From: Laetmonice hystrix
Taxonomy: Eukaryota
DNA length: 64,000 nucleotides
NCBI GenBank assembly: GCA_965235115.1
Contig: OZ249436.1
Span: 4,032,001 to 4,096,000, forward strand
Direction: 5' to 3'
Numbering within the stretch: position 1 is the stretch's first letter; every line of letters begins with the position of its first letter. The position numbers and the translations under genes were made by a program. Shown piece by piece: positions 1 through 63,442 of the stretch. The notes below the pieces were generated by a model. It made no database searches. It saw only the letters and a list, made by a program, of their open reading frames with translations, and was not told the DNA's origin.

Positions 1-2757
1 CTCAGACCATACACTAACCCTTCCACCCCGTCCTCAGACCTTACACTAACCCTTCCACCCCGTCCTCAGACCTGACACCAACCCTTCCATCCCGTCCTCA
101 GACCTTACACTAACCCTTCCACCCCGTCCTCAGACCTGACACCAACCCTTCCATCCCGTCCTCAGACCTTACACTAACCCTCCACCCCGTCCTCAGACCT
201 GACACCAACCCTTCCACCCCGCCCTCAGACCTTACACTAACCCTCCACCCCGTCCTCAGACCATACACTAACCCTTCCACCCCGTCCTCAGACCTTACAC
301 TAACCCGTCCACCCCGTCCTCAGACCTTACACTAACCCCTCCACCCCGTCCTCAGACCTTACACTAACCCTTCCACCCCGTCCTCAGTCCTTACACTAAC
401 TCTTCCACCCCGTCCTCAGACCTTACACTAACCCTTCCACCCCGTCCTCAGACCTTACACTAACCCTTCCACCCCGTCCTCAGACCTTACACTAACCCGT
501 CCACCCCGTCCTCAGACCTTACACTAACCCTTCCACCCCGTCCTCAGACCGTACACTAACCCTTCCACCCCGTCCTCAGACCTTACACTAACCCTTCCAC
601 CCCGTCCTCAGACCTTACACTAACCCTTCCACCCCGTCCTCAGACCTTACACTAACCCTTCCACCCCGTCCTCAGACCTGACACTAACCCTTCCATCCCG
701 TCCTCAGACCTTACACTAACCCTTCCACCCCGTCCTCAGACCTTACACTAACCCGTCCACCCCGTCCTCAGACCTTACACTAACCCTTCCACCCCGTCCT
801 CAGACCGTACACTAACCCTTCCACCCCGTCCTCAGACCTTACACTAACCCTTCCACCCCGTCCTCAGACCTTACACTAACCCTTCCACCCCGTCCTCAGA
901 CCTTACACTAACCCCTCCACCCCGTCCTCAGACCTTACACTAACCCTTCCACCCCGTCCTCAGTCCTTACACTAACCCTTCCACCCCGTCCTCAGACCTT
1001 ACACTAACCCTTCCACCCCGTCCTCAGACCTTACACTAACCCTTCCACCCCGTCCTCAGACCTTACACTAACCCGTCCACCCCGTCCTCAGACCTTACAC
1101 TAACCCTTCCACCCCGTCCTCAGACCGTACACTAACCCTTCCACCCCGTCCTCAGACCTTACACTAACCCTTCCACCCCGTCCTCAGACCTTACACTAAC
1201 CCTTCCACCCCGTCCTCAGACCTTACACTAACCCTTCCACCCCGTCCTCAGACCTTACACTAACCCTTCCACCCCGTCCTCAGACCGTACACTAACCCTT
1301 CCACCCCGTCCTCAGACCTTACACTAACCCTTCCACCCCGTCCTCAGACCTTACACTAACCCTTCCACCCCGTCCTCAGACCTTACACTAACCCGTCCAC
1401 CCCGTCCTCAGACCTTACACTAACCCGTCCACCCCGTCCTCAGTCCTTACACTAACCCTTCCACCCCGTCCTCAGACCTTACACTAACCCTTCCACCCCG
1501 TCCTCAGACCTTACACTAACCCTTCCACCCCGTCCTCAGACCTTACACTAACCCTTCCACCCCGTCCTCAGACCTTACACTAACCCTTCCACCCCGTCCT
1601 CAGACCTTACACTAACCCTTCCACCCCGTCCTCAGACCTCACACTAACCCTTCCACCCCGTCCTCAGACCTCACACTAACCCTTCCACCCCGTCCTCAGA
1701 CCTCACACTAACCCTTCCACCCCGTCCTCAGACCTCACACTAACCCTTCCACCCCGTCCTCAGACCTTACACTAACCCTTCCACCCCGTCCTCAGACCTT
1801 ACACTAACCCTTCCACCCCGTCCTCAGACCTTACACTAACCCTTCCACCCCGTCCTCAGTCCTTACACTAACCCTTCCACCCCGTCCTCAGACCTTACAC
1901 TAACCCTTCCACCCCGTCCTCAGACCTTACACTAACCCTTCCACCCCGTCCTCAGACCGTACACTAACCCTTCCACCCCGTCCTCAGACCTTACACTAAC
2001 CCTTCCACCCCGTCCTCAGACCTTACACTAACCCTTCCACCCCGTCCTCAGACCTTACACTAACCCTTCCACCCCGTCCTCAGACCTCACACTAACCCTT
2101 CCACCCCGTCCTCAGACCTTACACTAACCCTTCCACCCCGTCCTCAGACCTTACACTAACCCTTCCACCCCGTCCTCAGACCTTACACTAACCCTTCCAC
2201 CCCGTCCTCAGACCTTACACTAACCCTTCCACCCCGTCCTCAGACCGTACACTAACCCTTCCACCCCGTCCTCAGACCTTACACTAACCCTTCCACCCCG
2301 TCCTCAGACCTTACACTAACCCTTCCACCCCGTCCTCAGACCTTACACTAACCCTTCCACCCCGTCCTCAGACCTTACACTAACCCGTCCACCCCGTCCT
2401 CAGACCGTACACTAACCCTTCCACCCCGTCCTCAGACCTTACACTAACCCTTCCACCCCGTCCTCAGACCTTACACTAACCCTTCCACCCCGTCCTCAGA
2501 CCTTACACTAACCCTTCCACCCCGTCCTCAGACCGTACACTAACCCTTCCACCCCGTCCTCAGACCTTACACTAACCCTTCCACCCCGTCCTCAGACCTT
2601 ACACTAACCCTTCCACCCCGTCCTCAGACCTTACACTAACCCTTCCACCCCGTCCTCAGACCTTACACTAACCCGTCCACCCCGTCCTCAGACCGTACAC
2701 TAACCCTTCCACCCCGTCCTCAGACCGTACACTAACCCTTCCACCCCGTCCTCAGAC
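1..2757. repeat. 32-bp minisatellite, ~86 copies, truncated by window start
   Basis: Unit CTCAGACCTTACACTAACCCTTCCACCCCGTC. Confidence 0.98.
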
Positions 2758-3049
2758 CCCCCCCCCCCAAGGACCCCCCATTATCTGCCCCTGCGTCTAC
2801 CCCTAATTCCGTGAGAATTTACAATGGGGGAATAGACAAGAGTTGAAGAGTGTACCGTACGTAATAACACTAATGATCACATGGGTGGAGTTCCGTAGGC
2901 CTACATCTCGAGTGAAAGATACTCGAGCTGACCCTAACGACGCGCTATATAAGGCACATTCTTTCTCATTGACTGAATTAACCGACCTATCCCAGTCAGT
3001 TTTTTAAAGCGCCGTCCATAGCCTCCAGAACCTGATACCTATACGTCTG

Positions 3050-3263
3050 CAGTGGGGGATCCAGGATTTTGATAAGGGGGGCACCAGGATTTTCACAAGG
3101 GGGGGGGGGCAGCAGGATTTTGATAAGGGGGGTAAAACCTTTTTTTTGCCTCGTTATGCTCGGCTTTTGATTTTGGCTGTACTAATGCATCTTCATTCAA
3201 CCCCAAAAAAGAAGGAAAATCTAAGGGGGCCCGGCCCCCTAGGCCCCCCTAGATCCCGCACTG
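3050..3263. mobile_element. hAT-like MITE with 5-bp TSD
   Basis: TIRs CAGTGGGGGATC / GATCCCGCACTG (11/12), flanked by GTCTG on both sides. Confidence 0.75.
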
Positions 3264-3901
3264 GTCTGTTATACACAGGGCCATCCCGCAATGGACGACC
3301 TTGCTATACGATAATGCTGCGTGCGGCTGTCATATTGACAATCAACATATTTATTTGGTGCAGTGAAGCACCATGATTCTCCTCGGTCGTTATGTCATCC
3401 CTTGTCATTATTAGCACTGACGCCATCGCCTACAGCGCCTGGAGTCAGGTAGCAGTAGAGACGCCCCCTTCCGTGAAATGATATCACCCCTTTAAGAGGA
3501 CCAACAAAATATTCCATCGCGGTCTCCATTCGAGAGTCATAGACAGCACCCGGGCCTGTAATATTTGATCTAATGTTTGTCGAGGACTAGTCCATGTGGG
3601 CGGAGATGACGTGTAACAGACACGTTGTGACGGTCGGCGTGCCTGGAATGACAGTGACCTGTGGCCAACCTGCAGGATATTCCCTCCAACCTACTTATAG
3701 AGTAGAGTCGGGCAGTTGGTGTGGGATGGTGGCGGCTGTGTGGGTACAGGATCAGATGGTAATTGCACACTGTGTCGGGCCCATCGCCGACTCGCCAGGT
3801 GTGATTACGTGATTCCAAACACGTTATTGGGACTGATGATTGATCGAAGAGTGGACGGAGCTCGGGACCGTACGGACAGACGGAGCAATGGCGATTTAGG
3901 A

Positions 3902-4477
3902 CCGGTGTAACGATTTCAAGTTCCCCCCTCATTCAAGTCCCCCCCCCCCCCCGGGAACTTGAAAACGTTTTCAAATTCCTCCCCCGGGAACTTGAAAACG
4001 TTTTCAAATTCCCTCCCGCGATTTAATTTTCCCTCCCCCAGGGACTTGAAAACGTTTTACGTTTATAAATAAAATATAGGCCTACCTTATTATTTTATAA
4101 CTAATTTTAAATGTCGATCCTTTTTGTCCTTCTTACTTCACCACATCTAGGGGGTAGGTCCTAGGCCTAGATATCTTTTGCCAGCTTGTTTCTCTCGATT
4201 CATTTTACTGACCGTTCATTTTCACCCTAACCTAACCCTAACCCTAACCCTAACCCAAACCCTAGCCCTAACCCTTTCCCAAGGGAACGCGTATTAACGT
4301 TTTTCACGTTCTCGTGGGGGGAAATTGAAACCATTTTCAGAATCCTAGGGGGGAATTTGAAAATGGGGGGAGGAATCTGAAAACAATTTCAAATTCCTGG
4401 GAGGGAATTTGAAAACGTTTTCAAATTCCCGGGGGGGGGGGGGATTCCGGAGGGGGAATTTCAAAACGTTACACCGG
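3902..4477. mobile_element. Foldback-type non-autonomous DNA transposon with internal (CCCTAA)n
   Basis: Termini CCGGTGTAACG / CGTTACACCGG; subterminal GGGAACTTGAAAACGTTTTCAAATTCC modules on both arms; telomere-like tract at ~4224-4275. Confidence 0.75.
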
Positions 4478-8165: not shown

Positions 8166-8737
8166 TCATTGCAGGACACACTTGGTACCCCCGTCAGCCC
8201 CTCTCCGACTCTCACTGTCGGTCGTACCATCCGGGTGTTTCGTCTGCAGGATGAGGAGATCGGTACGAATGCTGGGCCGGCGAGTGTTGGGAGCCACGGC
8301 TCCGCACGCGTCACTGAGCCGGCGACGGATGGTAACACCCCGGCGGAAGCTGCCGCTACCTCCGCCCTGGGCGCCACCCACGTAGGTCGGCTGGACTTTA
8401 CGGTGTAATGACGGGCTCATCTCGGTTGGCAGTTGCGCCAACATGAAGAGTTTCAAGAAGATCTCCTCGATGTTGATATTTCTCTTGGCTGATGTTTCCA
8501 CGGCTCCGCAGCTGGGGAGGCCCTCGACCAGAGCCTTCAGCTCGTCAGTACCTATCACACGTTCTGCCTCCTTATCGCATTTATTGCCCACAAGTACCAT
8601 GGGGACACGCGGCCGTTTCTGAGCCTGACCCTGATCCGGACTCTGCCCCTTCGATTCCCAGACCTGAGACTGTAGACGCTTCACCTCCTCGAAACTCTCG
8701 CGATTATCGATGCTGTAGACCAGGATAAAGAGGTCGC
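8166..8737 (-). CDS. RASD: RASD/Rhes/Dexras1-like small GTPase, coding exon 2 (terminal)
   Basis: Acceptor TTTCTCTCTGCAG|GC (AG at 8739-8738) completes G|GC = Gly, then DLFILVYSIDNRESFEEV...LVGNKCD (G4)...ETSAK (G5)...LPTEMSPSLHRKV...ACGAVAPNTRRPSIRTDL...KCVLQ*. CAAX box present; stop TGA at 8168-8166. Joined CDS is 861 nt = 286 aa. Confidence 0.95.
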
Positions 8738-8961
8738 CTGCAGAGAGAAAGCACAGGGCATGAGGTCGGGATCTCTCCCGAGCACAGTCAACATCAAACA
8801 CATCTATAGTTGAAAAGGTCGACCGGAAACAGACAGCTACTATCAAGCAAACCGATAAATCCATAGGTAGAATCGTTGTTAGATTTGTTCTGTGGATTTG
8901 TTGTCTCTGGGTCCCCTCCCCCGAAGGCTTTTCTGTCGATCCGACTCTCTTGTTGAGTTCA

Positions 8962-36479: not shown

Positions 36480-36668
36480 TGGGGTTTTACGCCTTGCAAC
36501 AGCCAGGGTCATATCACGGCGGTGAAGATGATGATGATGATGAAAGTCAGTTTTTCTTGGTGGAGGAAACCGGAGTGCCCTGAGGAAACCACCGACCTTC
36601 GGGAAGGAACTGACTGACAAACCTTTCACACATGCAGCCCTGGCCAGGGATCGAACCTGGACCGCAGC
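36480..36668 (-). mobile_element. 5'-truncated tRNA-derived V-SINE-like element, copy 1
   Basis: Minus strand has B-box GGTTCGATCCC and a V-domain-like core GGTGGTTTCCTCAGGGCACTCCGGTTTCCTCC. Confidence 0.7.
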
Positions 36669-37050: not shown

Positions 37051-37240
37051 TTGGGGTTTTACGCCTTGCAACAGCCAGGGTCATATCACGGCGGTGAAGA
37101 TGATGATGATGATGAAAGTCAGTTTTTCTTGGTGGAGGAAACCGGAGTGCCCGGAGGAAACCACCGACCTTCGGGAAGGAACTGACTGACAAACCTTTCA
37201 CACATGCAGCCCTGGCCAGGGATCGAACCTGGACCGCAGC
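37051..37240 (-). mobile_element. 5'-truncated V-SINE-like element, copy 2 (local duplicate)
   Basis: Nearly identical to 36480-36668. Confidence 0.7.
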
Positions 37241-51861: not shown

Positions 51862-52823
51862 TTAACTACATTAAGATGAGGAGAAACGGCCTAATTAATC
51901 TGTCTATCTGGGCCCTGTAACATTTTGGCATGCTATCGATATCGTATTCATCATAATAGCTGTTTAAACAGTAGGTCATGATACACTAATATGACATATT
52001 GTACATCACAAGGTCCAAATTTACGCTTTTTGAAGGGTCATTGTACACCATGTTGAAAACAGGGTAGGCAGGTCTGGCGAGATGACTGCAAGGGTCGTTA
52101 AAACAAAAACAAACAAAAAACAAAAAAAAAAAACAAAAAAAAAAAAAAGATTGTTCAAATTCCAACCACCTGTTTGAGCTTCCTGTGTAGAAAGGGTTAG
52201 GAAGGCGGGGCTATTTCCGCTCGGAAGTAAAAGATGTTTTCGTATGCAATCAAGATTACCCAGTCCTGGCTTAAGCCGATCGTAAGTGCCATTAAATGTC
52301 TGTTAGTGTTTTCTCATTAGCCGTTTGACAGTGCTGTCGTCTTCTGGGACTGTTGGATGACATAAAAACGCAACTCATACGGAGGCCATTTTTTGTCGGT
52401 GGTTCGTACGCATGCGGCCTGGAATCGTGATCGACATGGCATGAACAATTAATCCCGGCTCACTCTCGAATCTTGGAGTGTCAGGGTATAGTTCTTGGAG
52501 TGTTGGGATAGTTATTGATGTCGTTGTGTAAAATGTGTGTTTGGCGTGCTGTTAATAATGTTTAGGCTCGCAATTTATAAAATTTGGCATCGGCAAAATA
52601 AAGGTAGGAGGCATGTAAATGTATTTTCAACTTTTTCGTTTCATTTTGAACGAAACGGGATCATCCCAACCGGGTCTGCGCCGGGGCGCCGTGCATAGTA
52701 GTGGTAGTATAGACTGTAAGTGAGAGAGAGGAGGGAGAGGGAGATAGAGAGAGAGACAGGGAGAGAGAGAAAAAGAGAGATATGGGGGAGGGCGAGGGAG
52801 AAAAGAAAAAAGAAAAAAAAAAG

Positions 52824-52828
52824 AAAAA
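52824..52828 (-). terminator. Pol III oligo-T terminator, copy A
   Basis: TTTTT directly after the 3' strand of the closing stem, followed by further T runs. Confidence 0.6.
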
Positions 52829-53199
52829 GTGAACTTGGTCTTAGTCGACTGGATACGTTCATCCTACCGTTCGAAGATCTGGCGTCTGAGACAACACGTG
52901 ATAACCCAATGATAGCCGCCATACGGAACTGTGCCACAGATCGACCCACTGACGGGGAACGGGTTGTATTGCTACATCCCTTTAGAAGAGTCATGTCGCA
53001 CTTTTCTCAGGCTTGCACCCTCCCGCCTCCAAGTGGACACTAAGTGACTCATCATACTGTCAGTGTTTGAACCATCAGCACGTGTTGCCAGACTACGACC
53101 GAACGTGGACCCATGCAAGCTCCTTCCGACCCATCAGCCAGTTCATGGGAGACAGACCCGAGTCTATCTAAGCGATACTTTCAGACGTGACCGTTCACT
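52824..53199 (-). ncRNA. Putative Pol III-transcribed structured ncRNA, unknown family, copy A (~376 nt)
   Basis: Starts AGUGAAC 34 nt after the start of TATATAAAGC and ends GUUCAC-UUUUU (5'/3' closing stem plus T5). Core 52866-53109 is homologous to 60350-60602, with identical blocks of 33, 22, 17 and 14 nt. Confidence 0.75.
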
Positions 53200-53223
53200 G
53201 TACATGTGCCAAGTGGTTTCGTG

Positions 53224-53267
53224 GCTTTATATAGTGGGGAGGTCAAGCTGGACCTCAAGAGTGGTGT
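53224..53267 (-). promoter_or_regulatory. Type-3 (U6-like) Pol III promoter of copy A: PSE-like box plus TATA
   Basis: ACACCACTCTTGAGGTCC (53267-53250), 16-bp spacer, TATATAAAGC (53233-53224). Geometry matches copy B. Confidence 0.65.
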
Positions 53268-54177
53268 CCCACTCAACCACATTGTTTTAATAAGATAAAA
53301 ACATTTTACAGGCGACAACCAAAGCCTTGGAGGTGTAGATCCTGTCTGGAGCATTAAAAATGGGGTGGCGATCCAGTTATTTCGTGCAAGTTGATTTTAT
53401 TAAAATATATTAATAAAAATGATAAAATCAGGGCAACATGGACAATGAGGCACGTGACACCGACGTTCTGTATACGACAGTCGTCACCAAGCGTCAAGAT
53501 CCACATAGTTGCAGTCATTTATATACAAATTATGGTCTCACCTCCAAAACCAATTGCCTACATGGCTGTATTTTAGTGGGTTCTTTATCACCAAGCAATA
53601 TAAGTGAACACCGACTTAAACATCAGAAGGTTTCCCAGGTAGAACATATCTCACATTAATCAAGACACCATTTCTAACGTCCTGTCTGTCCAAATTAAGT
53701 CAAGGTGCTACAACCAAGCATGTCTGGCGGGGTCATACTGTCTACAGGTAAAAGTGTTGACTGTAACTGAATGACTGACGTACTGAGTCACTGGCGTGAG
53801 GTGTGACAAACAAACCTGGACAATGAAAACCACTACTTGGTATTTATAGCACAAGAATTTATTAGAGGAGTGCGTATACTGGCATATCTTTCACCTACTC
53901 TATGTACCACCAAAATCTTGCTTACGTTTGAAATACAGTAATTGAATAAATTATGCCTGATGGTTAATTATTAATCATTTGATTATTGTTTGGTCATGAA
54001 GGAGTAAAAGTTTTAATAGCAACTGATGCAATGTCTGCCCCTGACTTCATGGATCTGCAGCTATATCCGTAAACCATCTCATTTCTGCCATGCTGTCTTT
54101 TTTTTTCTTAGTCAAAGAAAAAGAAATCAATTCCACTCAAGTAATCCTTTGAGACTATGAGATTACGCGTATCGGCA

Positions 54178-54586
54178 AGTAAAGCGATAAAGATTTTCTT
54201 CTTTTTCCTCTTTCGCCCAATTGGCACAAAATTTTATTGTATGAACTAAGCATCAACACAATCTAATAGGCCAGTTCCCTGTGAAAAGGTCTTTCAGGCG
54301 TTAGACTGGGTGAAAAAGTGGATTTTGGTGGAAATGAGGGGTTTTAGGGGGAATTTGGGGCGTGACAAAAGTCGGCAGAGTGGTGTGACAAAAGTATTGG
54401 CCTTGACAAGTTTGACAAAACTGCTCAAAAATACATATGACTAAAGTGGTGTCCTCGAGAACGTCAAAAGTGGGCATTTTGTGTGACAAAAAGTGGTAAA
54501 AATGACAAAAGTGGTTGCTACAACATCCATTAGTGCAGGGCCTAATATAGCGGTTCCATTCTCAGGAAAATCTTTATCGCTTTACA
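54178..54586. mobile_element. Inverted-repeat element with internal GTGACAAAAGT modules
   Basis: GTAAAGCGATAAAGATTTTC / GAAAATCTTTATCGCTTTAC inverted pair. Confidence 0.55.
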
Positions 54587-55114
54587 AATTGTATGCATTT
54601 ATTCTAGAGTCAGAAGTCTAGAGTAGACCTACTACGTCTCAGGATTAATGTCCATGTCTTTCTGGGAGCTGAGCCCTTCGCAGGTAGGCTACCATCGATC
54701 CCGGCCTTCATTGGATCTAATTTCTGAAAACGTTTCTCGGTTCCCTGTGCCGCCGATAGGAGGCGACTGGTCTGTGTGATGATTTGACGGGTCTCTGTGG
54801 TCTGACACGCTGTGAATGGGTCACGTGGGGTTACCCTCGCCCGTCTCAGAACAAGAAAATCAACCATGTGGTTAGCAAGATGACCACCAGATGGCGCGCA
54901 GGACTTGGCGAACCTTTAAAGAGAACAGACGCCTCGATATAGACCTCCCATTGGATAGATCATAACGAACAATCGTTTTAAACTAACCAATGAGGGAGCC
55001 ACATAATAAACGTTTTGTATCATTCCATCGCCTGCCAATTCCTTTCGTTTTCAAATACAAAACATGCAAAACATCTAAATATGTAAACTGTTCATACTCA
55101 TTCACCCCCTGGTG

Positions 55115-58100
55115 TATGCATCCACCCATTCATCCACCCATCCACCAACCCAGCAATCCACCCACCCACCAACCCAGCAGTCCACCCACCCACCAACCGA
55201 GCAGTCCACCCATCCACCCACCAACCCAGCAGTCCACCCACCCATCCACCAACCCAGCAGTCCACCCACCCACCCACCAACCCAGCAGTCCACCCATCCA
55301 CCCACCAACCCAGCAGTCCACCCACCCACCCACCAACCGAGCAGTCCACCCACCCACCCACCAACCCAGCAGTCCACCCACCCACCCACCAACCCACCAA
55401 TCCACCCACCCATCCACCAACCCAGCAGTCCACCCACCAACCCAGCAGTCCACCCACCCACCAACCCAGCAGTCCACCCACCCACCAACCCAGCAGTCCA
55501 CCCACCCACCCACCAACCCAGCAGTCCACCCACCCACCCACCAACCCAGCAGTCCACCCACCCACCCACCAACCCAGCAGTCCACTCACCCACCCACCAA
55601 CCCAGCAGTCCACCCACCCACCCACCAACCCAGCAGTCCACCCACCCACCCACCAACCCAGCAGTCCACCCACCCACCCACCAGTCCACCCACCCACCCA
55701 CCCACCCACCAGTCCACCCACCAACCCACCAACCCAGCAGTCCACCCACCCACCCACCAACCCAGCAGTCCACCCACCCATCCACCAACCCAGCAGTCCA
55801 CCCACCCACCCACCAACCCAGCAGTCCACCCACCCACCCACCAACCCAGCAGTCCACCCATCCACCAATCCAGCAATCCACCCATCCACCCACCAACCCA
55901 GCAGTCCATCCACCCATCCACCAACCCAGCAGTCCACCCACCAACCCAGCAGTCCACCCACCCACCAACCCAGCAGTCCACCCATCCACCCACCAACCCA
56001 GCAGTCCATCCACCCATCCACCAACCCAGCAATCCACCCACCCACCCACCAACCCAGCAGTCCACCCATCCACCAACCCAGCAATCCACCCATCCACCCA
56101 CCAACCCAGCAGTCCATCCACCCATCCACCAACCCAGCAATCCACCCACCCACCCACCAACCCAGCAGTCCACCCACCCACCAACCCAGCAGTCCACCCA
56201 TCCACCAACCCAGCAATCCACCCATCCACCCACCAACCCAGCAGTCCATCCACCCATCCACCAACCCAGCAATCCACCCACCCACCCACCAACCCAGCAG
56301 TCCACCCACCCACCCACCAACCCAGCAATCCACCCACCCACCCACCAACCCAGCAGTCCACTCACCCACCCACCAACCCAGCAGTCCACCCACCCACCCA
56401 CCAACCCAGCAATCCACCCACCCACCCACCAACCCAGCAGTCCACCCACCCACCCACCAACCCAGCAGTCCACCCACCCATCCACCAACCCAGCAGTCCA
56501 CCCATCCACCAACCCAGCAATCCACCCACCCACCAACCCAGCAATCCATCCACCCACCCACCAACCCAGCAGTCCACCCACCCACCAACCCAGCAATCCA
56601 TCCACCCACCCACCAACCCAGCAATCCACCCACCCACCAACCCAGCAATCCATCCACCCACCCACCAACCCAGCAATCCACCCATCCACCAACCCAGCAA
56701 TCCACCCACCCACCAACCTAGCAGTCCACCCACCAACCAACCCAGCAATCCACCCACCCATCCACCAACCCAGCAATCCACCCACCCATCCACCAACCCA
56801 GCAGTCCACTCACCCACCAACCCAGCAATCCACCCACCCACCCACCAACCCAGCAATCCACCCACCCACCCACCAACCCAGCAGTCCACCCACCAACCCA
56901 GCAGTCCACCCACCAACCCAGCAGTCCACCCACCCATCCACCAACCCAGCAATCCACCCACCCACCCACCAACCCAGCAGTCCACCCACCCACCAACCCA
57001 GCAGTCCACCCACCCACCCACCAACCCAGCAGTCCACCCACCCACCCACCAACCCAGCAGTCCACTCACCCACCCACCAACCCAGCAGTCCACTCACCCA
57101 CCCACCAACCCAGCAGTCCACTCACCCACCCACCAACCCAGCAGTCCACCCACCCACCCACCAACCCAGCAGTTCACCCACCCACCCACCAACCCAGCAG
57201 TCCACCCACCCACCCACCAACCCAGCAGTCCACCCACCCACCCACCAACCCAGCAATCCACCCACCCACCAACCCAGCAGTCCACCCACCCACCCACCAA
57301 CCCAGCAGTCCACCCACCCACCCAACAGTCCACCCACCCACCCATCAACCCAGCAGTCCACCCACCCACCCACCAACCCAGCAGTCCACCCACCCACCAA
57401 CCCAGCAGTCCACCCACCCACCCACCAACCCAGCAGTCCACCCACCCATCCACCAACCCAGCAGTCCACCCACCCACCAACCCAGCAGTCCACCCACCCA
57501 CCAACCCAGCAATCCACCCACCCACCCACCAACCCAGCAGTCCACCCATCCACCAACCCAGCAGTCCACTCACCCATCCACCAACCCAGCAATCCACCCA
57601 CCCACCCACCAACCCAGCAATCCACCCACCCACCAACCCAGCAATCCACCCACCAACCCACCAACCCAGCAGTCCACCCATCCACCAACCCAGCAGTCCA
57701 CCCACCCATCCACCAACCCAGCAGTCCACCCACCCACCAACCCAGCAGTCCACCCACCCACCAACCCAGCAGTCCACCCACCCACCAACCCAGCAGTCCA
57801 CCCACCCACCAACCCAGCAGTCCACCCATCCACCAACCCAGCAGTCCACCCATCCACCAACCCAGCAGTCCACCCACCCACCCACCAACCCAGCAGTCCA
57901 CCCACCCACCAACCCAGCAGTCCACCCACCCACCAACCCAGCAGTCCACCCACCCACCAACCCAGCAATCCACCCACCCACCAACCCAGCAATCCACCCA
58001 CCCACCCACCAACCCAGCAATCCACCCACCCACCCACCAACCCAGCAGTCCACCCATCCACCAACCCAGCAGTCCACTCACCCATCCACCAACCCAGCAA

Positions 58101-58806
58101 TCCACCCACCCACCCACCAACCCAGCAATCCACCCACCCACCAACCCAGCAATCCACCCACCAACCCACCAACCCAGCAGTCCACCCACCCACCCACCAA
58201 CCCAGCAGTCCACCCACCCACCAACCCAGCAGTCCACCCACCCACCAACCCAGCAGTCCACCCACCCACCAACCCAGCAGTCCACTCACCCATCCACCAA
58301 CCCAGCAATCCACCCACCCACCCACCAACCCAGCAGTCCACCCACCCACCAACCCAGCAGTCCACCCACCCACCAACCCAGCAGTCCACCCACCCACCAA
58401 CCCAGCAGTCCACCCACCCACCAACCCAGCAGTCCACCCACCCACCAACCCAGCAGTCCACCCACCAACCAACCCAGCAATCCATCCACCCACCCACCAA
58501 CCCAGCAGTCCACCCACCCACCAACCCAGCAGTCCACCCACCCACCAACCCAGCAGTCCACCCACCCACCCACCAACCCAGCAGTCCACTCACCCACCAA
58601 CCCAGCAGTCCACCCACCCACCAACCCAGCAGTCCACCCACCCACCAACCCAGCAGTCCACTCACCCACCAACCCAGCAGTCCACCCACCCACCAACCCG
58701 GCAGTCCACCAACCCAGCAGTCCACCCACCAACCCAACAGACCACCCACCCACCCACCCACCCACCCACCCACCCACCCACCCACCAACCCAGCAGTCCA
58801 CCCACC
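55115..58806. repeat. ~3.7-kb CCAC-based minisatellite (20-28-bp units)
   Basis: Unit (CCAC)n-CAACCCAGCARTCCA. Confidence 0.98.
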
Positions 58807-58828
58807 CTGTCGGAAGTGTAGAACTTAC

Positions 58829-58973
58829 CCCCGTCGCCGGCCAACTGACAGGTCCGTTCCAGGTGACCTCCCGAGTCCCGCTGTTCGGCGGACAGGTGCG
58901 GACAGAACCGGCGCCTTGCCGCGGTCTGAGCCGCATGGAATGACAGCTGTTGGATCTGCATGGGGTCCAGTTT
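58829..58973 (-). other. Candidate internal exon of an unidentified gene
   Basis: GC-rich 145 bp between GTCTTCGTCAG| and |GTAAGT; open in all three frames. No homology recognised. Confidence 0.3.
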
Positions 58974-59007
58974 CTGACGAAGACGTACACAAGAAACAGT
59001 CATGTCT

Positions 59008-59195
59008 CGGGGGCGGATCCAGGAATTTTTTTATTTGGGGGGGGGGGGCACGGGTGTATGGGTGGATAAATGGATCCATAGCTACCTGACATGGGCAAGG
59101 GTCACTCAGTATTGGGGGACCAGAACCCTGCTTTTTCAAAATTTCGGGGGGGGGGGGGGCAGGGCCCCCTGAGCCCCCCCCTAAATCCGCCACTG
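59008..59195. mobile_element. hAT-like MITE with probable 5-bp TSD
   Basis: CGGGGGCGGAT ... ATCCGCCACTG; flanks TGTCT / TGTAT. Confidence 0.65.
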
Positions 59196-59524
59196 TGTAT
59201 ATAGGACTATTCGATGTAGCCGCTTTTTGTTTTCCTCAATCGCCTAACTACATCCACCCGACCCCCCCCCCCCCCTCCGGCGGATCTAGACGGGGTTACC
59301 CTAGGGGGTACCGTCGGAATCCGAATGGTAAACACTGAGTTGCTCTTGTTGCTCTGAAACATAGAACGGGGATTGGCCCCTTTTGGGGGTCTGTAAGGGG
59401 AGGCACGTGCCCCCCCCCCCTCCGGCTCCCTGGATCCGCGCCTGCCCCCGAATAGCAGTAAACACCTGGGTATGACTCAAAATCTACTTATAGCGATTCC
59501 TAGCTACCACGATGTTATACAGAG

Positions 59525-59700
59525 CAGGGCCGTAGCCTGCCCAAAAATCCCAGGGGGGCAGTGTCCTATGAACAATAACCAGATAGGCCTAACGCGTGAT
59601 AGCGCGTCATTGCGCCGGTCGAGCTGGGAGTCTGGGTTACAAAAAATGGAAATCCCAGGGGGCAGTTGCCCCCCCCCCCCCCCGCAGGCTACGGCCACAT
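59525..59700. mobile_element. hAT-like MITE
   Basis: TIR GGCCGTAGCCTG / CAGGCTACGGCC. Confidence 0.6.
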
Positions 59701-60014
59701 GTGATAGTTCGACACCAGGGAATGTAGGGAAATGAACTTCTCTTTCAATTTCTTTTGGGTGGGAGAGTATGTACCCGACCCTGTAGCATGGCGTTGCAGC
59801 TCTGGTGGTTGCAGGTATTTCACTGCGCCCATACTTTCCTAAAATCAACTTTCACACCTGATGGCTAAATATACGTATAGATCCACATAGGCCTGCTCGA
59901 TGTTTCATGCAGGCAAAGGCTACTGACATTTCTTCACACGTCAGTGAGTCGCAAAACAACAGACCCAAACAATAGAGCGTCTAATAATAGTCTGTCCCTG
60001 CGACTGGCACTCTT

Positions 60015-60022
60015 ATTTGCAT
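60015..60022. promoter_or_regulatory. Octamer motif (possible distal sequence element) upstream of ncRNA copy B
   Basis: ATTTGCAT ~310 bp upstream of the inferred +1. No equivalent seen for copy A. Confidence 0.35.
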
Positions 60023-60260
60023 ATCAAATAGGTATCAAGACATGCTCACGTGATTAGAGAGGGCGCTCACGTCGCAATTTTGCTGGGTAGTTTTCAAAAT
60101 ACACAAATGTATCTGTTTATGTTCACTAAAACAAATTTTACAGACGTAAAATATCTATCAAAATTTGCTTTTAATCTTTACCTAAGACCTGTAGTAGTTG
60201 AATACTTCTAATTTTGCCGGAACTCTGTTTTTATCCTAGCATAACGTTGAGTGTATGTGC

Positions 60261-60304
60261 ACACCCTTTCTGTGGTCCTCGACCTGGAGGGGGATATATA
60301 AAGC
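60261..60304 (+). promoter_or_regulatory. Type-3 (U6-like) Pol III promoter of copy B: PSE-like box plus TATA
   Basis: ACACCCTTTCTGTGGTCC (60261-60278, 13/18 identical to the copy A box), 16-bp spacer, TATATAAAGC (60295-60304). Confidence 0.65.
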
Positions 60305-60327
60305 AATTACCACCACTGTAGTAATGT

Positions 60328-60643
60328 AGGGAACAGCGAGGCGCCGGTCTCCACGTTCGGTCGTAGTCTGGAAACAGACGCTGTTGAAAACCTGACAGTA
60401 CGAAGAGTTCGGCTCGGTTGGTATGTGTCCACTTGGAGAGGTGAGGGTGTAACTCGGCGATAAGTGTGACACAACTCTTCTAAAGGGATGTAGCAATACA
60501 ACCCGTACCCCGTCAATGGGCTCAATCTGCGGCAAGGTTCCAAATCAGTTGACTCTCAATGGGCTATCGTGTGTTCTCCAGACGACAGATCTTCGAACGG
60601 TATAGGACTTGGACCAAGTCTCAAGGATCAGTTCCCCTTTTTT
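60328..60643 (+). ncRNA. Putative Pol III-transcribed structured ncRNA, unknown family, copy B (~316 nt)
   Basis: Starts AGGGAAC 33 nt after the start of TATATAAAGC (60295) and ends GUUCCCC-UUUUUU (closing stem plus T6). Same core as copy A, with compensatory changes. Confidence 0.75.
60638..60643 (+). terminator. Pol III oligo-T terminator, copy B
   Basis: TTTTTT directly after GTTCCCC. Confidence 0.65.
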
Positions 60644-61002
60644 AGTACTCTGAATTTTTAGTTACTCTCAGCTCGATACAAATGATAATAAAAAGTGTCC
60701 TGAGACACTCTTGTCCCAGAACTTGATTCCTCCGTGATCATCCCAGGTGCAATCGGTCGCTGGAATAACTCGCAATACATTACACAGTATTTTGACCCAA
60801 GCTTCTGAGTCCCGATTCTCTGTGGCAGTCTAAGCATAAATCAAGTATACTATATAACTGGAAAACTATCGTGAGATATATCGTATCGTTTGTTGTATCG
60901 TGATACGTATCGTATCGTGGCACAAGTGTTTCGTTTCGAAATCTGCACGGCTAAATAATACGGACTCCCACGTCTTTCTCGACCATTACCTGAGAACTTT
61001 AA

Positions 61003-61609
61003 ACATCACATCTCATGACATTCTCAAAGTTCACATCTCATGACATTCTCAAAGTTCACATCATCTCCTGACATTCTCAAAGTTCACATCTCCTGACATT
61101 CTCAAAGTTCACATCTCATGACATTCTCAAAGTTCACATCTCATGACATTCTCAAAGTTCACATCTCCTGACATTCTCAAAGTTCACATCTCCTGACATT
61201 CTCAAAGTTCACATCTCATGACATTCTCAAAGTTCACATCTCATGACATTCTCAAAGTTCACATCTCATGACATTCTCAAAGTTCACATCTCATGACATT
61301 CTCAAAGTTCACATCTCATGACATTCTCAAAGTTCACATCTCATGACATTCTCAAAGTTCACATCTCATGACATTCTCAAAGTTCACATCTCATGACATT
61401 CTCAAAATTCACATCTCATGACATTCTCAAAGTTCACATCTCATGACATTCTCAAAGTTCACATCTCATGACATTCTCAAAGTTCACATCTCATGACATT
61501 CTCAAAGTTCACATCTCATGACATTCTCAAAGTTCACATCTCATGACATTCTCAAAGTTCACATCTCATGACATTCTCAAAGTTCACATCTCATGACATT
61601 CTCAAAGTT
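61003..61609. repeat. 25-bp minisatellite, ~24 copies
   Basis: Unit ACATCTCATGACATTCTCAAAGTTC. Confidence 0.97.
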
Positions 61610-62339: not shown

Positions 62340-62996
62340 AAAAGACCATCTCTGGTTAAATTACCCACAACTTTACCAAAGACCATTTCTGGTTAAATTA
62401 CCCACAACTTTACCAAAGACCATCTCTGGTTAAATTACCCACAACTTTACCAAAGACCATCTCTGGTTAAATTACCCACAACTTTACCAAAGACCATCTC
62501 TGGTTAAATTACCCCCAACTTTACCAAAGACCATCTCTGGTTAAATTACCCCCAACTTTACCAAAGACCATCTCTGGTTAAATTACCCACAACTTTACCA
62601 AAGACCATCTCTGGTTAAATTACCCCCAACTTTACCAAAGACCATCTCTGGTTAAATTACCCCCAACTTTTCCAAAGACCATCTCTGGTTAAATTACCCC
62701 CAACTTTACCAAAGACCATCTCTGGTTAAATTACCCCCAACTTTACCAAAGACCATCTCTGGTTAAATTACCCCCAACTTTACCAAAGACCATCTCTGGT
62801 TAAATTACCCCCAACTTTACCAAAGACCATCTCTGGTTAAATTACCCCCAACTTTACCAAAGACCATCTCTGGTTAAATTACCCCCAACTTTACCAAAGA
62901 CCATCTCTGGACCCCCAACTTTACCAAAGACCATCCCTGGTTAAATTACCCCCAACTTTACCAAAGACCATCTCTGGTTAAATTACCCCCAACTTT
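62340..62996. repeat. 37-bp minisatellite, ~18 copies
   Basis: Unit AAAGACCATCTCTGGTTAAATTACCCMCAACTTTACC. Confidence 0.97.
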
Positions 62997-63030: not shown

Positions 63031-63442
63031 TAGGATATCACATATCAAATAGGGGACAACGCAGGATATCACATATCAAATATGGGACAACGCAGGATAT
63101 CACATATCAAATAGGGGACAACGCAGGATATCACATATCAAATAGGGGACAACGCAGGATATCACATATCAAATAGGGGACAACGCAGGATATCACATAT
63201 CAAATAGGGGACAACGCAGGATATCACATATCAAATAGGGGACAACGCAGGCTATCACATATCAAATAGGGGACAACGCAGGATATCACATATCAAATAG
63301 GGGACAACGCAGGCTATCACATATCAAATAGGGGACAACGCAGGATATCACATATCAAATAGGGGACAACGCAGGCTATCACATATCAAATAGGGGACAA
63401 CGCAGGATATCACATATCAAATAGGAGACAACGCAGGATATC
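63031..63442. repeat. 31-bp minisatellite, ~13 copies
   Basis: Unit AGGATATCACATATCAAATAGGGGACAACGC. Confidence 0.97.

Follow-up and report, generated by a model that had tools for sequence, protein, structure and literature searches.

The window analysed here is a 64,000-nt stretch of the Laetmonice hystrix genome (NCBI GenBank assembly GCA_965235115.1, contig OZ249436.1, positions 4,032,001 to 4,096,000 of the forward strand). It contains two loci, copy A and copy B, each with the layout of an RNA polymerase III (Pol III) gene for a structured RNA and each lying inside a partial DNA transposon. The genes are predicted to comprise the following parts, given in window positions, including a box that resembles a proximal sequence element (PSE) and a TATA box ahead of each RNA.

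52829-53199, minus strand: predicted RNA of copy A (A-type, 371 nt), opening at 53199 and ending at 52829
52824-52828, minus strand: T5 terminator of copy A, with a CT-rich low-complexity tail beyond it
53225-53233, minus strand: TATATAAAG box of copy A
53249-53267, minus strand: PSE-like box of copy A (beginning ACACCACTCTTGAGGTCC), with ACACC 34 nt before TATATAAAG
60328-60637, plus strand: predicted RNA of copy B (B-type, 310 nt)
60638-60643, plus strand: T6 terminator of copy B
60295-60303, plus strand: TATATAAAG box of copy B
60261-60279, plus strand: PSE-like box of copy B (beginning ACACCCTTTCTGTGGTCC), with ACACC 34 nt before TATATAAAG

The two RNAs have a common core that is 78% identical across 258 nt (blastn, E 2.5e-36), and the four identical blocks of 22, 14, 33 and 17 nt reported in a first-pass annotation of this DNA are all present. 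The A-type RNA has an additional 5′ domain of ~60 nt that is missing from the B-type; among A copies, conservation opens at AGTGAACGG and closes at GTTCAC, after which comes the T-run. Other features described in that annotation were likewise borne out. The sequence TATATAAAGC lies at 53233-53224 in copy A and at 60295-60304 in copy B, 33-34 nt ahead of the first conserved A. The closing stem co-varies: at pair 3:389 of a 56-row alignment, the 36 A-type rows carry U-A and the 20 B-type rows G-C. Oligo-T directly follows both RNAs (T5 in A, T6 in B). The copies are divergent, with 7.1 kb between them. Most of this gap is filled by a 28-bp C-rich minisatellite of ~138 copies (3.7 kb, 55134-58807), and the 1300-aa open reading frames (ORFs) listed over it (e.g. 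54990-58943) are repeat artefacts.

Comparison with the promoters of established Pol III genes of the same genome shows that the upstream boxes and their spacing are of the U6 type. Seven control genes located with Rfam models (three U6, 7SK, RNase MRP, and two RNase P genes) all have an ACACC box 64-69 nt upstream, together with a TATA box at -30 to -34. The distance from ACACC to TATA is 34 nt in the three U6 genes and 7SK, 32 nt in RNase MRP, and 36 nt in RNase P. In copies A and B, ACACC stands at -68 and -67, TATATAAAG starts at -33/-34, and the two are 34 nt apart; the likeness of both copies to the U6 promoter reaches into ACACCnnTCTGnGGTC. No B box at up to one mismatch and no tRNA-like part was found in either RNA, the scan for internal promoter boxes being confined to the B box. 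An internal T4 occurs in 1 of 56 distinct copies, compared with 65% and 47% of shuffled sequences. The type-3 layout of PSE, TATA and oligo-T proposed in the first-pass annotation therefore stands, and it rests on the match to this genome's U6, 7SK, RNase MRP and RNase P genes. By this comparison, A and B carry the genome's own type-3 Pol III promoter, and their transcription is predicted. In practical terms, the ACACC-N-TATA promoter defined from the seven control genes can be used directly to express guide RNAs in this organism.

The two loci are far from alone. All copy searches were made in the window's own 627-Mb assembly, a single genome, where an invariant 33-mer shared by A and B has 996 matches at up to three mismatches and its reversed control has 0. 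A 33-mer specific to the 371-nt A-type has 698 matches, and one specific to the 310-nt B-type (the first 33 nt of the B RNA) has 194 at up to three mismatches. Searches with the full RNAs gave 40 scored matches at 99-100% identity for A, out of 1328 first-look candidates on many contigs, and 40 scored matches at 95-100% identity for B, out of 1596. By these counts, A and B are members of one family of ~900-1000 predicted Pol III units with U6/7SK-type external promoters, ~700 of them A-type and ~190 B-type. The “divergent pair of paralogous genes” of the first-pass annotation accordingly dissolves into two neighbouring insertions from this family, and their proximity in the window is a chance neighbourhood of two family members. 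An nhmmer profile built from 56 copies and run over the window and all sampled loci gave 91 hits; the window yielded only A and B, and no new subfamily appeared among the loci covered. Contigs of sequencing runs X1-X3 over window 59900-60900 include variant forms with other sequence in place of parts of the B RNA, for example 60321-60390, and these hint at further subfamilies beyond the sampled loci.

The promoter is retained in most copies. Of 40 copies on contig C1 that were chosen solely by the exact 33-mer, 34 combine the PSE with an exact TATATAAAG at the expected distance, and two (L064 and L071) have the PSE with a 1-nt variant of the TATA box. The PSE was seen in the B-type copy L054, which shows no exact TATATAAAG, its TATA stretch itself being unread. 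The promoter is missing from one copy in the 40 (L066), and two of the 40 (L053 and L069) are truncated inside the RNA.

Each gene in the window sits within a larger element, whose parts are as follows.

52723-54522, minus strand: partial A1-type non-autonomous transposon carrying copy A, with the outer end of its 5′ terminal inverted repeat (TIR) at 54522 and no 3′ TIR in the window
54340-54522, minus strand: 5′ TIR of the A1 element, with CCACTTTTGTCA subrepeats and the terminus TGTAGCAACC
59525-60937, plus strand: partial B-type non-autonomous transposon carrying copy B, equivalent to positions 1-1429 of a 2012-bp relative
59525-59539, plus strand: 15-bp 5′ TIR of the B element, CAGGGCCGTAGCCTG

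At its 5′ end the B element begins abruptly, at window 59525, with unrelated flanks in nine loci, and B copies share ~800 nt upstream and ~290 nt downstream of the gene. Six elements have an inverted copy of CAGGGCCGTAGCCTG at the opposite end; these are 2012-2019 bp long, or longer where they hold nested insertions, and four of the six two-ended copies are flanked by 5-bp target-site duplications (TSDs; GGATC, ATGTC, GAGTT and AAGAC). The gene occupies approximately positions 804-1119 of 2012. The element in the window is without its 3′ part and 3′ TIR, and minisatellites take over. These occupy 61006-61609 (25 bp x24), 62341-62996 (37 bp x18) and 63032-63442 (31 bp x13).

The A1 element, of ~2 kb, is a different one. 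Of 40 sampled loci, 32 match copy A over at least 528 nt of upstream sequence, and in all three loci with enough flank the element is bounded by TIRs of 150-174 bp with 88-92% identity, two of the three also having duplications of 5-6 bp (GAGGT and CCCATG). The terminal 33-mer of A1 has 340 matches in the genome. On contig C1, every assessable plus/minus pair of A1 TIRs (12/12), 2.1-2.7 kb apart, encloses a copy of the gene. Neither A1 nor B contains an ORF longer than 78 aa, and the only sequence common to the two backbones is the gene cassette, from about -110 to the T-run. On the evidence of their TIRs and duplications, the carriers are two unrelated families of non-autonomous TIR DNA transposons. 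Tentatively, B may be hAT5-like and A1, by its TGT terminus, Ginger-like. Similarity between the RNA and the transposon ends, as expected of a guide or mimic of those ends, was at chance level: the best common word is 8 nt, a length reached in 18-23 of 200 shuffles.

The position of the genes within these elements changes one part of the first-pass annotation and upholds another. The genes had been set apart from mobile DNA; instead, the unit and its promoter ride inside two TIR/TSD-bounded transposon families and in arrays of kb-size units. It had also been argued that they are not retroposed copies of a short interspersed element (SINE), and this holds. An ordinary SINE or another retroposed Pol III transcript would account for the high copy number, the CT-rich simple-repeat tail after many A copies, and the 5′ truncation inside the RNA of 2 of 40 sampled copies. 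However, homology extends far beyond the transcript in both types, the external promoter travels with the copies (exact in 34 of 40, with a 1-nt TATA variant in two more) and no B box is present. The edges of the copies are TIRs with TSDs, ~800-1300 bp from the gene, and not transcript ends. For the copies examined, retroposition is thus refuted, and we give it next to no chance as a general explanation.

Many A-type copies form tandem arrays on several contigs, with spacings of 1952-1954 bp on contig C4 and ~4.3 kb on C1, and numerous further copies of the family are dispersed. The shorter array defines a second context, A2, in which an A-type gene is part of a 1.95-kb tandem unit (L021, C4:9903000-9912999). 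On the opposite strand, the A2 unit (1952-1954 bp) holds an H2B pseudogene with frameshifts and a stop, preceded by a promoter with the ATTTGCAT octamer and a TATA box, and the sequence ahead of the RNA gene is present a second time within the unit. The complete Pol III unit is the sole conserved cargo of the two unrelated TIR families and of the tandem arrays. Arrays of other Pol III genes also occur in this genome: U6 genes are spaced at 1.5-1.7 kb at C2:53.92 Mb, C12:19.15 Mb and C21:10.85 Mb, and genes for the signal recognition particle (SRP) RNA at ~2.2 kb, in at least 25 copies, at C10:15.07 Mb and C12:24.03-24.15 Mb. The two RNase P genes are near-identical (C10:16476182-16476484 and C30:5693572-5693874), with flanks similar for at least 110 nt upstream, and reflect either a duplication or an uncollapsed haplotype.

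The first-pass annotation could not assign the RNA to a family, and the searches agree with it. Rfam 15 gave 0 matches across the whole window at the gathering score. At E <=10 with permissive filters, copy A matched only ceN69 (15.8 bits) and ROSE_3 (13.7 bits), which is chance level given cut-offs of 45 and 43, and copy B matched nothing. The canonical RNAs sit elsewhere in the genome, namely U6 in tandem arrays (118 bits), a single 7SK (58 bits), RNase MRP (99.7 bits), two RNase P RNA genes (144.6 and 142.9 bits) and SRP RNA arrays (266 bits). The strong matches to the Metazoa_SRP and 7SK models indicate an animal genome. In blastn comparisons of the A and B RNAs with the genome's own 7SK, RNase MRP, RNase P and U6, only chance matches of 9-17 nt were found. 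Neither was there a possible telomerase template, no run longer than 7 nt (a chance length) being complementary to any of six common telomere repeats, from which the species' own repeat may differ. Exact-word scans of metagenome and viral contigs and blastn against phage records gave 0 matches; these are non-animal collections, so the result says little. No description of the RNA or its conserved words was found in the literature, subscription journals and transposon libraries lying outside the coverage.

These results bear on the possibility that A and B are divergent members of a known family, such as 7SK, RNase P, RNase MRP, SRP, telomerase RNA, U3, vault or Y. The size, the type-3 promoter, the 5′/3′ closing stem and a GNRA-capped hairpin would all suit such a membership, and the general build of the RNA is one that we take to recall RNase P/MRP, 7SK or Y RNA. 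Against this, no Rfam match rises above chance, the canonical genes are present elsewhere, blastn finds no similarity to 7SK, MRP, RNase P or U6, and ~900 copies would be odd for any such RNA. Membership of a known family is thus largely refuted already and very improbable. Taken together, a known family and a SINE account for a few parts in a hundred of the overall probability, and the remainder beyond the readings discussed below falls to mixed or unforeseen cases.

Variation among the copies is distributed unevenly. Segregating sites were counted in 32 A1 copies and in 12 colinear B copies out of 21, the others being left out for nested insertions or partial homology (L002, L034, L077, L078, L079, L081, L082, L084 and L087). 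Within the A1 set, 3 of 28 sites in the PSE and TATA boxes segregate (1 of 19 in the PSE alone), compared with 244 of 514 in the upstream backbone (Fisher p 1e-4) and 27 of 41 in the 16-nt and 25-nt spacers beside the boxes (Fisher p 5e-6). The A1 RNA segregates at 82 of 371 sites (Fisher p 5e-15 vs backbone). The B set has 1 segregating site among the 28 of the two boxes (TATA 0/9, PSE 1/19), 42 of 310 in the RNA, 192 of 564 in the upstream backbone and 93 of 269 in the downstream backbone. Identity between the A1 and A2 contexts is 98.9% for the RNA and 66% for the 250 nt upstream, and the downstream flank is unalignable. Private variants are depleted in the RNA (0.198 vs 0.436 per site). 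With 32 of ~700 copies sampled, however, “private” variants may belong to unsampled lineages, and their depletion does not show whether selection acts on single copies or on lineages as they propagate. Overall, there is far less variation in the promoter boxes and the RNA than in the transposon backbone, and the gene looks constrained inside mobile copies.

The predicted fold of the RNA was examined in an alignment of 56 distinct copies (36 A and 20 B), which gives a consensus structure of 64 pairs. It consists of a closing stem, a three-part long-range helix, a long arm, an invariant GCAA hairpin and a third arm. Two of these parts lie in the window copies as follows.

60354-60380 with 60568-60599, plus strand (copy B), and 53105-53079 with 52900-52868 (copy A): long-range helix H2a-c
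60485-60504, plus strand (copy B), and 52980-52961 (copy A): invariant hairpin GGGAUGUA-GCAA-UACAACCC, with a GNRA-type loop

Standard pairs fill 97.7% of 3582 cells in the alignment. Changes on both sides of a pair occur at 10 of the 64 pairs, compared with 0-3 when the partners are slid by 1-3 columns, and the covariation score is 0.148, where the slid versions score 0.007-0.044. At pair 187:202, 21 rows hold G-C, 20 hold A-U and 15 hold C-G; at pair 175:218, 46 rows hold G-C and 7 hold A-U, with G-U intermediates in 3; and at pair 239:248, in the GCAA hairpin, 54 rows hold G-C and 2 hold C-G. Double changes at these three pairs arose within families, and pairs 119:319 and 120:318 of the long-range helix switch between A and B. 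These compensatory changes support a conserved fold for the modelled structure.

The best reading of the locus is that A and B represent a lineage-specific, functional Pol III RNA gene that has apparently been amplified as transposon cargo. A SNAPc-like factor would recognise ACACC, and TBP/Brf2 would occupy the TATA box. Pol III would start ~33 nt past the TATA box and stop in the T-run, releasing an oligo-U-ended RNA of 310 or 371 nt that would fold into the closing stem, the long-range helix and three arms, one of them GCAA-capped. This RNA could then form a stable RNA-protein particle and act in trans. Since the upstream promoter lies within the DNA element that moves, new copies would keep it in working order and be born active. 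New copies of SINEs and U6 retro-pseudogenes, by comparison, are without a working promoter.

Another proposal is that the gene was captured once and has since been copied passively, its apparent conservation being due to recent amplification. Many copies are indeed 95-100% identical, folding energies are weak evidence of structure, and B elements with a split promoter have still spread. Recency, however, fails to explain how the PSE and TATA can be fixed (3/28) beside variable 16-nt and 25-nt spacers (27/41, p 5e-6), how the RNA can be 98.9% identical between A1 and A2 when the upstream flank is 66% identical, or why compensatory pair changes are found within and between A and B. We therefore consider non-functional cargo improbable.

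Several observations weigh against a functional, amplified gene. At three B loci (L077, L079 and L081, on contigs C1 and C2), an inverted-repeat element of ~870 bp is nested exactly in the TATA box, with ATAT duplicated, so that PSE and TATA are split by ~870 bp, and L077 and L079 nonetheless have 5-bp TSDs of their own; this speaks against a need for the unit in cis. The folding energy of the two RNAs is ordinary when compared with shuffles (z -1.47 and -0.98). In column shuffles of the alignment, 59 of 500 reach 10 double-change pairs, and the number of further pair types (27) lies below the shuffled mean of 28.9. The structure was also derived from the same sequences in which the changes were counted, and the independent compensatory events number ~10. 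The copies were picked via RNA similarity (top BLAST score or exact 33-mer), which favours young copies; this biases the RNA diversity of the B set, and the contrast between promoter and spacers is not directly biased by it. Constraint was measured inside one genome alone. None of the sequencing runs listed is recorded as RNA, and contigs of four runs from one sample span the gene and its flanks alike and are uninformative on expression; in these contigs, words from the gene are many times commoner than words from the B backbone.

If the gene is functional, a further question is who benefits. The gene may have persisted through a copying advantage of elements whose unit is active, in which case the cargo serves the transposon; we put this forward tentatively. 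Every assessable complete A1 element holds the gene, as noted above, and gene-less ends are not in excess, with 97 B 5′ ends compared with 194 B genes and 340 A1 TIR ends compared with 698 A genes. The PSE and TATA, expected to decay under host dose selection on ~900 copies, are the best-kept sites. On the other hand, an RNA that acts in trans would leave selection on each element weak, which makes service to the transposon the least secure step of the argument.

The beneficiary could instead be the host. The RNA would then be an abundant cellular Pol III RNA specific to this lineage, its native genes being those of the kb-unit arrays, from which transposons captured the cassette and scattered extra copies. 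The A-type arrays (1.95 kb and ~4.3 kb) are arranged like the U6 and SRP RNA arrays of this genome, and hundreds of tandem 4.5SH genes in rodents provide a precedent (PMC7279448). The homology between A and B does not reach past the functional limits of the gene, which is what capture of a cassette would give; capture of host DNA is demonstrated by the A2 unit, with its frameshifted H2B pseudogene and octamer promoter; and the depletion of private variants in the RNA points in the same direction. Yet no copy outside a repeat context was identified, and host dose selection on ~900 copies should tolerate dead promoters, whereas the PSE and TATA are the least variable sites. The presence of the gene in all 12 assessable complete A1 elements, and the failure of gene-less derivatives to outnumber gene copies, also argue against it. 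A cellular RNA is on the unlikely side, though a serious contender.

A bolder extension of the transposon-serving proposal is that two unrelated transposon families have each retained, as the sole conserved cargo, a Pol III gene dedicated to a single structured RNA on which their own success depends. The needed RNA could be a cofactor of transposition, or a decoy that blunts host silencing, as a transposon counterpart of the viral VA and EBER or of bacterial transposon RNAs. We regard this as speculative and rather doubtful.

The family can be compared with several known systems. With the type-3 Pol III genes of its own genome it has in common ACACC at -64 to -69, TATA at about -30 to -34, a purine start, a T-run and the lack of an internal promoter. 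It differs in that its RNA matches none of theirs by covariance model or blastn, and in that those genes have one to a few tens of copies whereas the A/B family has ~900, inside transposons.

Primate snaR is a lineage-specific Pol III RNA encoded in tandem repeats, and both snaR and the rodent 4.5SH RNA are ~90-120 nt long, of SINE/7SL-type origin and transcribed from internal A/B-box promoters. The A/B RNA differs in its length of 310-371 nt, its external PSE and TATA, and its additional dispersal by TIR transposons. No SINE, 7SL or tRNA origin was found for it, there being no B box, no tRNA-like part and no SRP match in Rfam. The likeness lies in genomic arrangement: 4.5SH genes number in the hundreds, each in a tandem unit of 4-5 kb, in the description given by PMC7279448, and the A/B family similarly has hundreds of copies, many in kb-size tandem units.

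Dispersed families related to Pol III offer a different comparison. SINEs, including the snRNA-headed SINEU, move via RNA, have internal promoters and end where the transcript ends. The A/B family is likewise Pol III-linked, high-copy and dispersed, but it moves as TIR/TSD-bounded DNA with the promoter inside. DNA transposons of the Dada group insert into multicopy small-RNA genes as their targets, according to what PMC8869645 reports of them. There, too, DNA transposons are tied to multicopy small-RNA genes; in the A/B family, however, the small-RNA gene is an intact internal cargo, ~800 bp from the element end.

Structured RNAs encoded by mobile DNA are a third point of reference. The omega RNA of TnpB/Fanzor and the bridge RNA of IS110 abut the element end, contain variable guide or end-complementary loops, and lie beside a nuclease or recombinase gene. 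The A/B RNA is comparable as a structured noncoding RNA of a few hundred nt encoded by mobile DNA. In contrast to these, its gene is internal, the RNA is constant between loci, no ORF exceeds 78 aa, and similarity to the TIRs is at chance. Adenovirus VA and Epstein-Barr virus EBER are abundant structured Pol III RNAs that act in trans, with internal promoters and in viral genomes. They, too, are cases of a mobile genetic parasite with its own structured Pol III RNA, a status that for A/B is predicted, and the likeness is one of general kind, with no relation in sequence or in tested structure.

The family thus falls within a known kind, that of lineage-specific, repeat-borne Pol III RNA genes; what sets it apart is the uncatalogued RNA, the external promoter and the TIR transposon as vehicle. 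Only a proven role of the RNA in transposition would place it in a category of its own. Provided that the RNA is made, this animal genome has an abundant undescribed structured RNA of 310-371 nt, together with an unusual route of amplification, in which DNA transposons carry a complete gene with an external promoter, the opposite of SINEs and U6 pseudogenes. The evolutionary question that it poses is whether host or transposon gains from conservation of promoter and fold over ~900 mobile copies.

Elsewhere in the window, a C-rich minisatellite with a unit of ~32 bp by eye stands at the start, positions 1-4000 having a GC skew of -0.75. The exact B-box consensus (GGTTCGATCCC) occurs twice on the minus strand, at 36647-36657 and 37219-37229, 572 bp apart. 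ARAGORN found no tRNA in the window, and the two matches may be parts of tRNA-derived repeats. The ORF at 8166-8864 on the minus strand encodes a Ras-family domain (Pfam PF00071, E 9e-17) and is probably an exon of a small-GTPase gene.

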